NCBI GenBank assembly: GCA_046350695.1
Contig: JAXLZX010000002.1
Location: 109,070-133,069, forward strand
Reading direction: 5' to 3'
Length of the DNA stretch: 24,000 nt
Source: Candidatus Saccharimonadales bacterium
Lineage (GTDB): Bacteria; Patescibacteriota; Saccharimonadia; Saccharimonadales; JACQNP01
A program made the translations under genes and the position numbers. The notes beneath the pieces are model-generated. The model searched no databases, had not been told where the DNA came from, and saw only the letters and a program-made list of their open reading frames with translations. This document shows, piece by piece, positions 2,735 through 22,770 of this stretch. Within the stretch, counting starts at the first letter, position 1, and each line of letters begins with the position of its first letter.

Positions 2735-3121
2735 TTATCCTAGGCGAAGTTTGATTCTATCGATCACATCAGCAATAACAACCTGTGATTTTACAAGATA
2801 GTCATCTACGCCAAGCTTTTCGGCCTTTTCTTTGTCAGCTTCTTGGCTCAGTGCTGTCAACATTATGATTTTGACATTTGCTGTCTCTGGGGTATTTCGT
2901 AGAATATCAAGAACATCAAAGCCACTTACCTTAGGCATCATCACATCGAGCAAAATCAAATCCGGCTTATATTCCAACGTAGAGGCTAGGGCATCTTCAC
3001 CATTCGGCACCCTATGAACATTAAAACCCTCAGTTTTTAATCTTGTAATATAAACACTTGCTAAAGCATCATCATCCTCTACGAGTAATATTTTCTTTTG
3101 TTTTGTAGTAGTTTCTTCCAT
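2735..3121 (-). CDS. Single-domain response regulator (CheY-like receiver only), 128 aa.
   Basis: KILLVEDDD acidic pocket, LDVMMP phospho-acceptor Asp context, MLTAL, and the conserved Lys in YLVKS. There is no output domain. ATG at 3121, TAA stop. Confidence 0.85.
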   Translation of the reverse strand: MEETTTKQKKILLVEDDDALASVYITRLKTEGFNVHRVPNGEDALASTLEYKPDLILLDVMMPKVSGFDVLDILRNTPETANVKIIMLTALSQEADKEKAEKLGVDDYLVKSQVVIADVIDRIKLRLG

Positions 3122-19218: not shown

Positions 19219-20457
19219 CTAATACTTGATCAATATAGCTAGACTTTCAATGTGTGGAGTTTTCGGAAAAAAGTTATAGCCTTCAATGGACTTGACTTCA
19301 TAGTCCTGCTGTAACAAAGCAATGTCCCTAGCTTGGGTTACCGGGTTACAGCTCAAATATACAACTATCGGTGGCTGTGCTGATTTAATTTTATCAATGA
19401 CTTTTGCGTGTAAGCCCGCTCTTGGAGGATCAACAACCAAAGACTTGTCACTACTAATATAATTGAGCGCTTCTTCACTACTCGCCAATAATATCGACTC
19501 TCTATTTTCTGCGTTTAGCTGAGCAAACTTTGTATTTTCAAAATCATTATCAATATAGTAATCAGCGCCGCCCACACAAACTCCTATAGTCCCAACGCCA
19601 CAATACAAATCAACAAAACTCTGCCCAGCTAAATTTTGTTTTATTTTTTTAATTGCCTGTTCAAAGATAGTTGTATTTACCTGGAAGAAGCTGTGGACAT
19701 TATAAATTAGTTTCTTACCAGATAAGTCATCTGACAACTCAACGCTACCATAGCTAAAAAGTGTATTTGTGAGTATACTTGCTGGACTTTTAGGATTTGA
19801 AAAACAAACTTCTACGCCCTGACATGCATCACCAAGCTCATCAATGTTTGGAAAGGTTTCATCCTTAACAAAGATTGCCGCGACAGTGTCACCCGTACTA
19901 TTAACTCTTAACAATAAAGTCTTTAGTTGGCTACCTCTAATTTTATGTTTGTTTAAAATAGCCACTATTCTTTGGGCTACTTGGTCGATCTCGGGTCTTG
20001 CTAAGCTGCTACCCTCAACTATAATCTTTCCCTGACTACCACGTCTATGCAATGCTAAGTGCAAGCCATCATCCTCAGCCCAAAATGAGTATTCCATCTT
20101 ATTCCTATAGTGCCACTGGTCGTCTGAGTCAAAAAAATCTACATCACCAAATTCTACTTTCTCTCTATGTAATGTTTCTTTTAGAATTTCGTGTTTAAAT
20201 TTATTCTCTGAATTTATGTCCATAATCTGCCATGGACTAGTGCTTAAATAAGCCTCGTCCCTAGGCTTAACGCGCAGTGATGACGGTTTGATAATTTCTT
20301 CTGCGACAGCCTCACAATAATCTTTTTTATTCTTTGTTATCCGAACGCCTACTTCTTCATCTGGTAAAGCGTTCCATACAAACACTACTCGCCCATCCGG
20401 CAGTCTGCCTATAGCTTGGCCGCCATGAACTAACTTTTCGGTTACGACCCTTTCCAT
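19219..20457 (-). CDS. SAM-dependent RNA (uracil-5-)-methyltransferase, TrmA/RlmD (RumA) family with N-terminal TRAM-like domain, 412 aa.
   Basis: VVDPPRAGL motif and the catalytic-Cys motif YLSCNP. FFQVN and DLYCGVGTIG form the SAM-binding site. The Cys cluster of Fe-S-containing RumA is absent. Confidence 0.85.
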   Translation of the reverse strand: MERVVTEKLVHGGQAIGRLPDGRVVFVWNALPDEEVGVRITKNKKDYCEAVAEEIIKPSSLRVKPRDEAYLSTSPWQIMDINSENKFKHEILKETLHREKVEFGDVDFFDSDDQWHYRNKMEYSFWAEDDGLHLALHRRGSQGKIIVEGSSLARPEIDQVAQRIVAILNKHKIRGSQLKTLLLRVNSTGDTVAAIFVKDETFPNIDELGDACQGVEVCFSNPKSPASILTNTLFSYGSVELSDDLSGKKLIYNVHSFFQVNTTIFEQAIKKIKQNLAGQSFVDLYCGVGTIGVCVGGADYYIDNDFENTKFAQLNAENRESILLASSEEALNYISSDKSLVVDPPRAGLHAKVIDKIKSAQPPIVVYLSCNPVTQARDIALLQQDYEVKSIEGYNFFPKTPHIESLAILIKY

Positions 20458-20465
20458 CTATTATA

Positions 20466-21419
20466 TCAGCGAGAATACAATCCAATGATCAGAACGACAG
20501 AAAACAGTACACGCAAGATCAAACTTATAAATACGTAGTTCTCCTGAACGGCTTCGTAGTTTGCAAACTTGCCTACACGCTTAAGTGCAAGTAACTGGTT
20601 TTTACCGATTATTGATGCACTAACAACCAGCACTACATAAAGTGCATAGACAAACCAAGTAGCTCTTATATCTCCGAAAACTATAGTGAAGATTGCGTAC
20701 GATATTATTACTAGCCACGGCAATATGCCAGTGATTAATCCTAGGTAATATTCTCTTATAGCTGCCTTTCCAGTTTCTACGGTACGTTTTTCAGCCATCC
20801 ATCCAGCGATCATTGTAACAATCATAAAACCACCAATAAGTTTCAGTGTTGCAATATCTAAAACCCCACTAAGCATGGCAACAGTTTCGACCATAATCGC
20901 AAAAGTAATAGCCATTTCAATCCATCGCTTTGGCATAACCTTAGCTTTTATTGAATCATCATGATCTTTTTTAAATCTAGTTAAGTAAAGTACTGGCAGA
21001 ACTATTGAAACAACCGCAAGCACAATTACTATCCATTTAATGTGCACATCCACAATCCCTTGAGTTGCTGGTGCAAACTGAGTGCCGTTAACACTGTTTA
21101 GTTCGTCCTTACCCCAATACCCAACACTAAGCTGAAAACTAAGGTTGCTCATCAAAAAGTATGCAGCAACAGCTATCAGTCCGTAAACAACTATACTTAT
21201 CGCATAAAGTTTCTGTAGCCTAGTTTTCGGTTCTTTAGATTTCTTACTATCTTTAGTCGTAATAGTCTTTTTTGAAACAACGACTTTTGTAGCAGTTGAT
21301 TTACTAGTAGACTTGGCCGACTTAACTGATGTGTTTTTAGAAGTTGGTTTTTTCGCTGCCGGTTTTTTGGCTTTTGTGGTTTTAGTCTTTGCCTTCGATG
21401 ATTTAGTTGTTGTAGCCAT
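20466..21419 (-). CDS. Heliorhodopsin-family 7-TM protein lacking the TM7 Schiff-base lysine, with a polybasic N-terminal extension (about 317 aa from the ATG at 21419).
   Basis: Blocks align with my recollection of heliorhodopsin 48C12: FKK...KRWIEMA (FKR...FRWVEYS), IAGWMAEKRT (LFGWLQEKYT), ITGILPWLVIISY (IAGIVPWIGLLIY) and GKFANY...NYVFISLILRVLF (GKWSNY...AYIVLSLVAKSAL). The start is set at the ATG at 21419 because TGGTATAGT lies 6 nt upstream. The track ORF begins at GTG 21437. Confidence 0.65.
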   Translation of the reverse strand: MATTTKSSKAKTKTTKAKKPAAKKPTSKNTSVKSAKSTSKSTATKVVVSKKTITTKDSKKSKEPKTRLQKLYAISIVVYGLIAVAAYFLMSNLSFQLSVGYWGKDELNSVNGTQFAPATQGIVDVHIKWIVIVLAVVSIVLPVLYLTRFKKDHDDSIKAKVMPKRWIEMAITFAIMVETVAMLSGVLDIATLKLIGGFMIVTMIAGWMAEKRTVETGKAAIREYYLGLITGILPWLVIISYAIFTIVFGDIRATWFVYALYVVLVVSASIIGKNQLLALKRVGKFANYEAVQENYVFISLILRVLFSVVLIIGLYSR

Positions 21420-21425
21420 GAGAGA

Positions 21426-21434
21426 ACTATACCA
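21426..21434 (-). promoter_or_regulatory. Extended -10 promoter TGGTATAGT, 6 nt upstream of the ATG at 21419 (leaderless-type).
   Basis: The minus strand reads TGG-TATAGT-TCTCTC-ATG. Confidence 0.4.
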
Positions 21435-21471
21435 CACTTATTACCACGAAAATGCAGTTTTATTGTCTACG

Positions 21472-21981
21472 TTATTTTAATTTTTCTGCAAATTTTTTAC
21501 GAAATTTTTCTAACTTTGGATTAATAACCGCTTGGCAATATGCCTGCTCGGGATGACTCATAAAATAATTACGATGGTAGTCTTCAGCCTCATAGAATTT
21601 ATTAAGCTTTTTGATTTTGGTTATAATTTTGCCATTCCATAATTGATTTGCAATACTCAGTGAGTTGTTTATTACATCTAACTGTTCGCTATTTTTGTAC
21701 AATATTATCGAGCGATACTGACTCCCTATATCATTTCCCTGTCTGTTAATTGTGGTTGGATCGTGAATCGACCAAAATATTTCCAATATTTCACCTAGCT
21801 TAATATCGTCTTCATTGAATTCAAGCTTGACCACTTCGGCATGATCTTGGATATTATAATAATTTGGGTCCTCGCCTTCACCGCCACTATAACCTGGCGA
21901 TACATATTCAATACCACTAACAAGCTGATAAGTAGCTTCTAAACACCAAAAACATCCTCCTCCTAAAACAATAGAATTCAT
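21472..21981 (-). CDS. msrA: Peptide methionine (S)-sulfoxide reductase MsrA, 169 aa.
   Basis: N-terminal LGGGCFWC active-site motif, and HDPT and YHRNYF motifs. Confidence 0.93.
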   Translation of the reverse strand: MNSIVLGGGCFWCLEATYQLVSGIEYVSPGYSGGEGEDPNYYNIQDHAEVVKLEFNEDDIKLGEILEIFWSIHDPTTINRQGNDIGSQYRSIILYKNSEQLDVINNSLSIANQLWNGKIITKIKKLNKFYEAEDYHRNYFMSHPEQAYCQAVINPKLEKFRKKFAEKLK

Positions 21982-22025: not shown

Positions 22026-22637
22026 TTATTCGTGGAGAGTTGCATGTACGCTATATCGAGATAGACTAATCCCCTGCTGTTTACGCCTAATGATAACCGT
22101 TAAGGCAATTAAAGCGTTAGCTATAACTAAATAGAATGGATATAACAATGCATCTAATGTGAATGTCTGCAGGGACGCTATTGTAAAGACTGGCGCAATT
22201 ACACCAATAATAAATGTCTGCCAAGTTTCCTCTCCGGGCTTTACCCAAGAGTGCCTTAAAGTCGGTAACATAGCAATACAGTCAATTGTTACCGAAGCAA
22301 TAATTGCAACCGTTGGCGAGTCAAAGACTAACCAAAGAATTAAACCAACTAATGCCCCAATTTGACAAAAACCATCGAACCAAGAAAATTTAGCTATTCC
22401 ATACTTTATGCCAAGTATCACTACTATTGTAGTACATATAGTGCTGCCAGCCATTAATATTCCTGTGTTGATTTCTCCGGCCGCAAAGGTTGCAAGCATA
22501 GCTATACCAGTTAGAAGAGTCCAAGTAAACCATGACACAATATTAGGTTTTGTCCGACGCTTGACTATGTCTATCATGTATGGAATGACAGATACTATCG
22601 CAAGCATCCCGCCAATAATCGCCATTATATTTCGCAT
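22026..22637 (-). CDS. 7-TM membrane protein with internal duplication (3+1+3), PQ-loop/SWEET-like (about 203 aa from the ATG at 22637).
   Basis: Seven hydrophobic helices. TM1 (VSVIPYMIDIVKRRTKPN) and TM5 (IAMLPTLRHSWVKPGEE) carry a similar Pro-x(7-10)-KP loop motif. The start is chosen at ATG 22637 (MRNIMAIIGG) because of the promoter geometry. The track ORF starts at GTG 22679. Confidence 0.4.
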   Translation of the reverse strand: MRNIMAIIGGMLAIVSVIPYMIDIVKRRTKPNIVSWFTWTLLTGIAMLATFAAGEINTGILMAGSTICTTIVVILGIKYGIAKFSWFDGFCQIGALVGLILWLVFDSPTVAIIASVTIDCIAMLPTLRHSWVKPGEETWQTFIIGVIAPVFTIASLQTFTLDALLYPFYLVIANALIALTVIIRRKQQGISLSRYSVHATLHE

Positions 22638-22644
22638 TACAGCA

Positions 22645-22673
22645 ATAGTATATATACTATACTGAATTAGCAA
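22645..22673 (-). promoter_or_regulatory. Candidate promoter TTGCTA, 17-nt spacer, TACTAT, then 7 nt to the ATG at 22637 (leaderless-type).
   Basis: -35 at 22673..22668, 17-nt spacer, -10 at 22650..22645, then 7 nt (TGCTGTA) to the ATG. Confidence 0.35.
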
Positions 22674-22770
22674 GTACACCTAATAAAGTTGAATCCAAGC
22701 CAAGTACAGTCAGAGTGGCGCAACAGATTATTCTGCGTGTAGTGTTCAACTTTATGATATGTGAGAGCGG

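Follow-up and report, generated by a model that had tools for sequence, protein, structure and literature searches.

The heliorhodopsin-like gene at the locus

The 24,000-nucleotide stretch of DNA analysed here (hereafter "the window") comes from a Candidatus Saccharimonadales bacterium, a tiny symbiotic member of the candidate phyla radiation (CPR), and it carries on its minus strand a complete gene for a heliorhodopsin (HeR)-like membrane protein in which the retinal-binding lysine is replaced by an arginine. The features of this gene that matter for what follows are listed below, with residues counted from the ATG at 21419 (adding 6 gives the numbering of a longer, 323-residue open reading frame, or ORF).

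20466..21419, minus strand: complete HeR-like gene, 317 amino acids from the ATG plus stop codon, identical to NCBI MFO0920323.1
20469..21221, minus strand: seven-transmembrane (7-TM) heliorhodopsin core, residues 67-317, including a long AB beta-hairpin (AlphaFold2, Foldseek)
21222..21419, minus strand: N-terminal tail of 66 amino acids, predicted to be disordered (predicted local distance difference test, pLDDT, <50)
20511..20513, minus strand: codon CGT of Arg303 (R309 in the 323-residue numbering), in the column of Lys241 of 48C12 (four alignments)
20523..20525, minus strand: Ser299, equivalent to S237 of 48C12 (MAFFT L-INS-i)
20916..20918, minus strand: Glu168 (E174 in the 323-residue numbering), within KRWIEMA, equivalent to the counterion E107 (alignments)
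20604..20627, minus strand: helix 6 stretch VVSASIIG, equivalent to residues 203-210 of 48C12, with F203, F205, F206 and N207 replaced by V, S, A and S
20841..20888, minus strand: family-specific charged pair, from Glu178 (helix 3, 20886-20888) to Lys193 (helix 4, 20841-20843)

Mechanical ORF calling delimits the gene as 20466..21437 (minus strand), with 323 amino acids from a GTG at 21437. Translation most likely begins at the ATG at 21419, for a product of 317 amino acids, because the identical NCBI protein MFO0920323.1 has this length, because the N-terminus of every homologue reads MATTT or MAT.. and because a TGnTATAGT element lies 6 nucleotides upstream of that ATG. A preliminary description of this DNA had placed the protein at 20466-21215, which spans the 7-TM core only and leaves out the 66-residue tail.

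That description had also assigned the protein to the heliorhodopsins, and a hidden Markov model search bore this out, with a score of 102.6 bits against the Pfam Heliorhodopsin family PF18761 (cut-off 26.7), while the type-1 Bac_rhodopsin profile gave no match in the Pfam search. The score against the NCBIfam HeR equivalog model NF038020 was 99.3 bits, just under its cut-off of 100, which would explain why MFO0920323.1, from a Candidatus Saccharimonadales metagenome-assembled genome (MAG), was deposited as a "hypothetical protein". Among PDB chains, the closest solved structures by sequence were 48C12 and TaHeR (phmmer). An AlphaFold2 model built on 48 homologues showed seven helices and a hairpin at residues 100-132 of the 323-residue ORF, with pLDDT >90 for 207 residues of the core. 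This model, a check that the preliminary description had suggested, superposed on solved HeRs over about 250 aligned columns: the ten best Foldseek matches in the PDB were all heliorhodopsins (E values of 5e-13 to 2e-10, root-mean-square deviations of 2.4-2.9 Å, target-normalised TM-scores of 0.84-0.90, or 0.85-0.90 against TaHeR and 48C12), and type-1 rhodopsins appeared only at E values of 2e-3 or weaker.

The Schiff-base column was located using four alignments: phmmer against PDB chains, a 48-sequence profile against PDB chains, MAFFT L-INS-i, and MAFFT auto with 196 sequences. In all four, Arg303 falls in the column occupied by Lys241 in 48C12 and by its counterpart Lys in TaHeR, in agreement with the Lys-to-Arg replacement described previously. 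From the NY..E..Y motif through to the end of helix 7, the alignment contains no gaps, SLVAKSAL of 48C12 standing opposite SLILRVLF, and the SxxxK retinal-binding motif is not matched, with SLILR in its place. Helix 7 (YEAVQENYVFISLILRVLFSVVLIIG) contains no Lys at all and the codon read from the window at 20511-20513 is CGT, both as first reported, and the motifs KRWIEMA (in which Glu168 corresponds to E107), GW..EK, PW and NY...Y..SL were all recovered by phmmer and MAFFT. A misalignment at helix 7 was ruled out by the agreement of the four methods, the ungapped helix 7 and the Foldseek superposition. Arg is unable to form a retinylidene Schiff base.

We also considered a Schiff-base Lys relocated elsewhere in the protein, and ruled it out after listing every Lys conserved in the clade of Arg-bearing relatives. 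These lysines lie in loops or at helix ends, except for K193 in helix 4 (L132 in 48C12), which is found in 78% of the whole family whatever residue stands at column 241, Lys included, and is therefore not a replacement specific to Arg forms. The earlier suggestion that both His23 and His80 of 48C12 are Tyr in this protein was right for His23 only: His80 falls on Pro or Leu depending on the aligner, and not on Tyr, because the register of helix 2 shifts by one residue between aligners. Since there is no His anywhere in helices 1 and 2, the loss of both histidines still holds.

The protonated Schiff base of 48C12 has E107 and S237 as direct hydrogen-bond partners (PMC7049168). Both residues have counterparts in the window protein (Glu168 and Ser299); of the other stabilising serines, S111 is Thr and S76 is Ser in MAFFT, other aligners shifting helix 2 by one residue.

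Selection on the gene and the residue at column 241

The relatives that are 94%, 93% and 88% identical to the window protein carry the same Arg, as do all of the next 20 (51-63% identity), and the Arg is encoded by three different codons: CGT in the window and in P0002, CGC in P0004 and AGA in P0006. Nei-Gojobori ratios of nonsynonymous to synonymous substitution rates (dN/dS) were 0.115 for the comparison with P0002 and 0.086 for that with P0004; the core alone gave 0.07-0.13. The identical protein is present on two contigs, and the full-length ORF is intact in 24/24 members of the Arg clade. The HeR-like gene is thus under strong purifying selection. The initial argument that the Arg codon is not a single-base error gains from the CGT, CGC and AGA codons among relatives and from an all-Arg clade of 24 sequences. 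An erroneous Arg call or a decaying pseudogene, for which nothing speaks beyond the missing Lys itself, is refuted by these data: two contigs with an identical protein, Arg in the 94/93/88% relatives, three codons, a dN/dS of 0.07-0.13 and intact ORFs. Sequencing or assembly error and gene decay were ruled out as candidates on the grounds of dN/dS, codon diversity and clade-wide conservation.

A profile search of 1.84 billion cluster representatives returned 3152 HeR-family sequences at E <=0.001 and 480 at E <=1e-30, and the residue at column 241 was tallied in three sets.

Best 150 representatives (one fragment without the column): Lys 107, Arg 16, other 26 (T, A, L, V, Q, S, N, I, Y, E)
All 193 sequences with the column: Lys 120, Arg 44, other 29
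24 GTDB species loci: Lys 15, Arg 9, other 0

Lys is absent in 29% of the clusters (50% identity; best 150 representatives). As for how often Lys-less HeRs occur, which the preliminary description had raised, 44 of the 193 family sequences have Arg in its place and 29 another residue. A neighbour-joining tree of 187 sequences with Fitch parsimony put Lys at the root, with about 30 losses and about 14 Lys-to-Arg changes, counts that are rough because the tree is distance-based and the sampling mixed; the window protein lies within the largest all-Arg clade of this tree (24 sequences). This distribution suggests that Lys was lost independently many times in the Saccharimonadia HeR family.

As a side observation, among 32 HeRs with a canonical AWQ helix 7, mostly with a basic N-terminal tail, 16 are without the Schiff-base Lys and carry N, L, V, S, Q, T, A, R or E instead (P0047, P0138, P0153, P0157, P0159, P0162, P0168, P0169, P0173, P0178, P0182, P0186, P0188 and P0191-P0193).

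The residue at column 241 is coupled to the counterion. An acid stands at column 107 in 42/44 Arg forms and 91/120 Lys forms, versus 7/29 forms with a neutral residue (MAFFT, 193 sequences), which corresponds, for positive versus neutral residues at 241, to an odds ratio of 13.5 (Fisher p = 4e-9, uncorrected for phylogeny). Counting an acid at either 107 or 237, the figures are 43/44 for Arg, 108/120 for Lys and 8/29 for neutral residues. We infer that Arg303 pairs with Glu168 and so would keep the buried ion pair normally supplied by the pigment. That a positive residue at the Schiff-base site goes together with the counterion acid suggests how opsin bundles may stay stable after retinal loss.

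Pocket, surface and surroundings of the gene

The retinal pocket of the window protein differs widely from that of 48C12. In the MAFFT alignment, the changes are Y108M, S111T, S112F, N138M, M141T and I142M, together with F203V, F205S, F206A, N207S and A210G in helix 6. Of the Schiff-base cavity, H23, H80, N101, Y108, N16 and E230 are replaced by Y, P (or L), M, M, Y and Q. Further residues of 48C12 that differ here are Q26, S242, W246 and Q247. Across the 24 sequences of the Arg clade, the two cavity histidines are gone, there is not a single aromatic residue at 108/203/205/206/209, and small residues occupy a mean of 3.8 of the five helix 6 positions 203/205/206/207/210 (consensus GAGxIG), compared with a mean of 2.0 in Lys forms. 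Family-wide, Lys forms have more of these aromatics than Arg forms (mean 1.44 vs 0.55) and more often retain F206 (54/120 vs 8/44), which suggests that pocket decay follows the loss of Lys; the pattern fits a decay in which helix 6 may pack inward.

These data bear on whether the protein could still be a photoreceptor that binds retinal or another chromophore non-covalently or through another Lys. Such a protein could make use of the pocket residues that are kept (W173, P172, G145, W146 and Q213) and, by a rough hand estimate, no bulky side chains fill its pocket; furthermore, Lys-less bacteriorhodopsin and bovine rhodopsin work, less efficiently, with aminated retinal analogues, as cited in PMC4915679. 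We nevertheless consider this highly improbable, given that helix 7 is without Lys, that the aromatics at 108/203/205/206/209 are gone in 24/24 Arg-clade sequences and that K193, the sole conserved membrane-embedded Lys, is family-wide and, by helical register, would be turned by about 120 degrees from the side of helix 4 that faces retinal. Retinal synthesis is, moreover, not known in this lineage: the remark made at the outset that the gene sits in a genome type that usually lacks it agrees with the finding that Saccharibacteria carrying rhodopsins lack blh, the retinal-producing enzyme (PMC9296517).

Another possibility is that the whole tail-bearing Saccharimonadia HeR family is retinal-free, Lys and Arg interchanging freely because the helix 7 residue serves only as a buried positive charge. 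The ~14 Lys-to-Arg changes and ~30 Lys losses of the rough tree, the 29% of 50%-identity clusters without Lys and the coupling of the positive charge to an acid at 107 or 237 all speak for it. H23, H80, N101, Y108 and N138 are missing from Lys forms too, and a flotillin-associated rhodopsin (FArhodopsin) with an intact Lys binds no retinal (bioRxiv 10.1101/2025.04.29.651185). Yet most members still carry Lys (62-71%), which is also the state inferred for the root, the higher retention of F206 and of aromatics in Lys forms given above suggests that the pocket decays once Lys is lost, and other Saccharibacteria rhodopsins efficiently take up external retinal (PMC9296517), so that we regard a retinal-free family as unlikely. 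Put in terms of light independence, with Lys and Arg as an interchangeable buried charge coupled to Asp/Glu and with the hairpin and Lys-rich tail carrying the function, the idea is a minority possibility that deserves to be kept in view: if true, it would expose a retinal-independent core activity of HeRs, and a minimal genome in which the gene keeps the same neighbours is a setting where experiments could find it.

The extracellular half of 48C12 is fully hydrophobic, in contrast to that of the window protein, where Glu178 and Lys193 stand in place of V117 and L132. Glu is found at column 117 in 105/194 family members and Lys at column 132 in 152/194, with an odds ratio for co-occurrence of 25. 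In 48C12, a link between S112/S113 and N138 is found where helices 3 and 4 meet (PMC7049168), and this link is lost in the window protein. Since helical register puts Glu178 and Lys193 on facing sides of helices 3 and 4, the pair may be a structural link between these helices.

Charged residues in the membrane could alternatively form, with the vacated pocket, the pathway of a light-independent channel or transporter. They occur at every level, with R165, E210 and Q292 on the cytoplasmic side, E168 and R303 in the centre, E178 and K193 in the extracellular half that is hydrophobic in 48C12, and D188 at the surface, and some viral HeRs are reported to transport protons. This alternative is very unlikely in our view: E178 and K193 sit at the interface of helices 3 and 4 and seem to tie these helices together, not to line a pore, and the gene has no specific association with any transport-related neighbour.

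The N-terminal tail is rich in Lys (32%), Thr (23%) and Ser (17%), with a net charge of +19, and its motif MATTTKSTKAKTKT is conserved (MATTTKS(T)KAKTKT). A tail of at least 30 residues is present in 148/194 family members, irrespective of what stands at the Schiff-base position, and dN/dS values of 0.03-0.19 indicate purifying selection on it. Lys and Arg number 8 in predicted inside loops, 3 in outside loops and 21 in the tail, a distribution consistent with the inverted topology predicted for the protein, with the N-terminus inside, which would place the tail in the cytoplasm. Possible binding partners of the tail are nucleic acids, acidic lipids or another protein. Outside the membrane, conservation is highest on the extracellular side, in the AB hairpin (KDEL..S...T.FAPA), whose D, L and A are near-invariant family-wide, and in the CD loop (SGV.D), so that the outside face may matter as much as the inside.

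The neighbours of the HeR-like gene and the element upstream of it are the following.

21472..21981, minus strand: msrA, peptide methionine sulfoxide reductase, upstream neighbour (PF01625, 172.9 bits)
19219..20457, minus strand: TRAM/uracil-5 (U5) RNA methyltransferase, downstream neighbour (PF05958 and PF01938), starting 8 nucleotides past the stop codon of the HeR-like gene
21426..21434, minus strand: extended -10-like element TGGTATAGT, ending 6 nucleotides upstream of the ATG

The methyltransferase is probably co-transcribed with the HeR-like gene. The same TGnTATAGT arrangement was found at four distant orthologous loci (L001, L003, L004 and L005), and TGGTATAGT is likely, judging from this recurrence, a dedicated promoter of a leaderless mRNA; the promoter and terminator scan gave no signal above background.

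The gene order is msrA, HeR-like gene, TRAM/U5 RNA methyltransferase, RsmE-type methyltransferase, PD-(D/E)XK nuclease, SerRS, hibernation factor and SecA. The full order is common to the Arg forms of the window, P0002 and P0006, and largely to the Lys forms P0025 and P0037. The block of msrA, HeR-like gene and U5 methyltransferase is kept in the distant Arg form P0043, and also in P0046 (a Lys form, 29% identical), with a NUDIX gene between msrA and the HeR-like gene. At the 24 GTDB species-representative loci, recovered by scanning the genome collection with an 18-sequence alignment, msrA adjoins the HeR-like gene in 19/24, at times inverted, and the methyltransferase follows it in at least 16/24. 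These loci belong to Saccharibacteria, Saccharimonadales or Patescibacteria MAGs, with three exceptions (one bin labelled Limnocylindria and two records titled only "bacterium"). The order common to Arg and Lys forms means that they are orthologues at one ancestral position and not paralogues; the HeR-like gene is thus a syntenic, vertically inherited gene of Saccharimonadia.

No retinal-related gene was detected among the window ORFs with Pfam, and no second rhodopsin gene was seen in the 24-kb window or in the flanks (up to 6 kb) of related loci. There is no histidine-kinase gene beside the HeR-like gene, the nearest signalling gene being a lone response regulator at 2735-3121, about 17 kb off, and no HAMP/MCP transducer gene in the window.

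Elsewhere in the window, whose GC content is 39.7%, every ORF with a family match in the span 66-22679 lies on the minus strand, forming a co-directional housekeeping array that includes an FtsX/MacB-type permease, msrA, SerRS, RF, FtsE/FtsX, a CHAP hydrolase, a Ctp protease, CTP synthase and the lone response regulator. SecA and the hibernation factor were placed in the window through synteny with L001. Pfam gave no match for the large ORFs 66-1550 and 1525-2649 or for a 217-residue multi-pass membrane ORF at 22026-22679 (minus strand), between the FtsX/MacB-type permease and msrA; an ORF like it occurs in the closest relatives L006 and L007 and is absent from L001. Scans of the window for tRNAs and Rfam families gave no match.

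A chromophore-free reading and known opsins

The interpretation we favour, with a probability of roughly 0.7, is that the gene encodes a chromophore-free HeR derivative that selection keeps as a core, vertically inherited membrane protein of this Saccharimonadales (CPR) bacterium. The light-independent derivative proposed in the preliminary description is probably what we are dealing with, judging from the dN/dS of 0.07-0.13, the three Arg codons, the all-Arg clade of 24 and the lost pocket aromatics. The guanidinium group of Arg303 would pair with Glu168, mimicking the pair of protonated Schiff base and counterion, and the small residues of helix 6 together with the new Glu178-Lys193 link would let the bundle close round the empty pocket, so that the protein would be locked in one state, whatever the light. 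Most speculatively, it could serve a still-unknown "dark" HeR role as a dimeric membrane scaffold or regulator, in which the extracellular hairpin, a cytoplasmic polar cluster (Arg165, Trp166 and Glu210) and the Lys-rich cytoplasmic tail might be the working parts, and for which the conserved neighbours MsrA and the U5 RNA methyltransferase would be the first candidate partners.

Several points weigh against this interpretation. The contact between Arg303 and Glu168 and the closed pocket are deduced from homology and covariation, and the covariation test ignores kinship between the sequences. A rough hand estimate from residue volumes gives a negative net change in side-chain volume, so the pocket is not obviously filled and a non-covalent hydrophobic ligand is conceivable. 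The window protein and its nearest relatives have Gln292 where the cytoplasmic cavity of 48C12 has E230. Conservation is lower in the cytoplasmic loops than in the extracellular hairpin, which does not favour a cytoplasmic partner, and where a small genome is highly syntenic, a conserved gene order says little about whether the protein works with MsrA or the methyltransferase. On balance, we consider a chromophore-free, charge-locked state reasonably supported.

What HeRs do is debated; they have been proposed to act as sensors, to regulate glutamine synthetase or photolyase, and to play a part in oxidative stress. Reported activities are the regulation of partners (glutamine synthetase, photolyase) and proton transport by some viral HeRs, besides the proposed oxidative-stress link; scramblase activity was reported to be lacking in TaHeR and one other HeR, unlike some other opsins (PMC10730872). 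The presence of msrA as a neighbour fits the oxidative-stress idea, with the weakness of synteny as evidence noted above. The clade described here amounts to a natural experiment, in which the chromophore would have been given up under strong selection on the gene, at a fixed genomic position and with Lys-bearing orthologues, and it thereby separates a light-free scaffold role from what retinal adds. It also offers concrete proteins for comparison: the Arg form, its Lys-bearing orthologue and an R303K mutant.

Compared with 48C12 and TaHeR, to which it is only 20-24% identical (Foldseek), the window protein has the same 7-TM fold with a long AB beta-hairpin and shares R104/W105, E107, S237, E149, G145/W146, P172/W173, Q213 and Y226, as well as the dimer residues D127 and Y179. 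It differs from them by Arg in place of Lys241, by the added 66-residue Lys-rich tail and the added Glu-Lys pair in the extracellular half, and by the replacement of H23, H80, N16, N101, Y108, S111, N138, M141, F203, F205, F206 and N207. Extra modules on the cytoplasmic N-terminus of a HeR core are also known from MORN-HeR and Znf-HeR, which are N-terminal fusions (Bulzu et al. 2021, PMC8612252), but the module here is a disordered Lys/Thr/Ser-rich tail and not a folded domain.

With its rhodopsin fold, missing helix 7 Lys and intact, maintained gene, the window protein has what defines a Lys-less opsin. The closest parallel among these is found in the haloarchaeal opsin-related proteins (ORPs), in which the Schiff-base Lys is replaced by Arg (group A) or by Leu or another hydrophobic residue (group B) (Becker et al. 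2016, PMC4915679). In both cases Lys is lost and pocket residues decay, and ORPs make up about 30% of haloarchaeal opsins (PMC4915679), compared with 29% of Lys-less clusters here. However, ORPs are type-1 proteins (Bac_rhodopsin) with the opposite membrane orientation and form one monophyletic clade. The HAMP/MCP transducer genes that neighbour group A ORPs were not seen here, and the likeness to that group is limited to the Lys-to-Arg change.

Betaproteobacterial Rh-noK and the FArhodopsins are, as the window protein probably is too, natural retinal-free rhodopsin homologues in streamlined genomes. For Rh-noK, it is reported that the wild type binds no retinal and that restoring Lys recovers the pigment, and the FArhodopsin bundle is intact without retinal (bioRxiv 10.1101/2025.04.29.651185). 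Both are type-1 and accompanied by a functional proton-pump paralogue in the genome, in contrast to the single syntenic orthologue seen in the DNA covered here, and in FArhodopsin the bulky H84 and E120 exclude retinal, whereas in the window protein the pocket residues shrink.

Published surveys were built in ways that bear on such proteins: a large rhodopsin survey retained only sequences with the helix 7 Lys (PMC9601134), and a survey of CPR genomes checked every candidate for the SxxxK motif (PMC9166423). About 29% of the clusters of this family would fail such filters. Our full-text literature search found no description of a Lys-less heliorhodopsin clade. According to Yamauchi et al. 2019, in the passage quoted in PMC10730872, >10% of microbial rhodopsins, "including HeRs", are without Lys, HeRs being thereby counted among the Rh-noK proteins, and the existence of Lys-less HeRs had therefore already been noted. 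Lys-less opsins, including Lys-to-Arg forms, are already known in type 1, and what we describe here is a Lys-less opsin of the heliorhodopsin type; what it chiefly adds is the recurrent, family-wide loss of Lys, the covariation of charge pairs, the basic tail and a fixed synteny shared with Lys-bearing orthologues.

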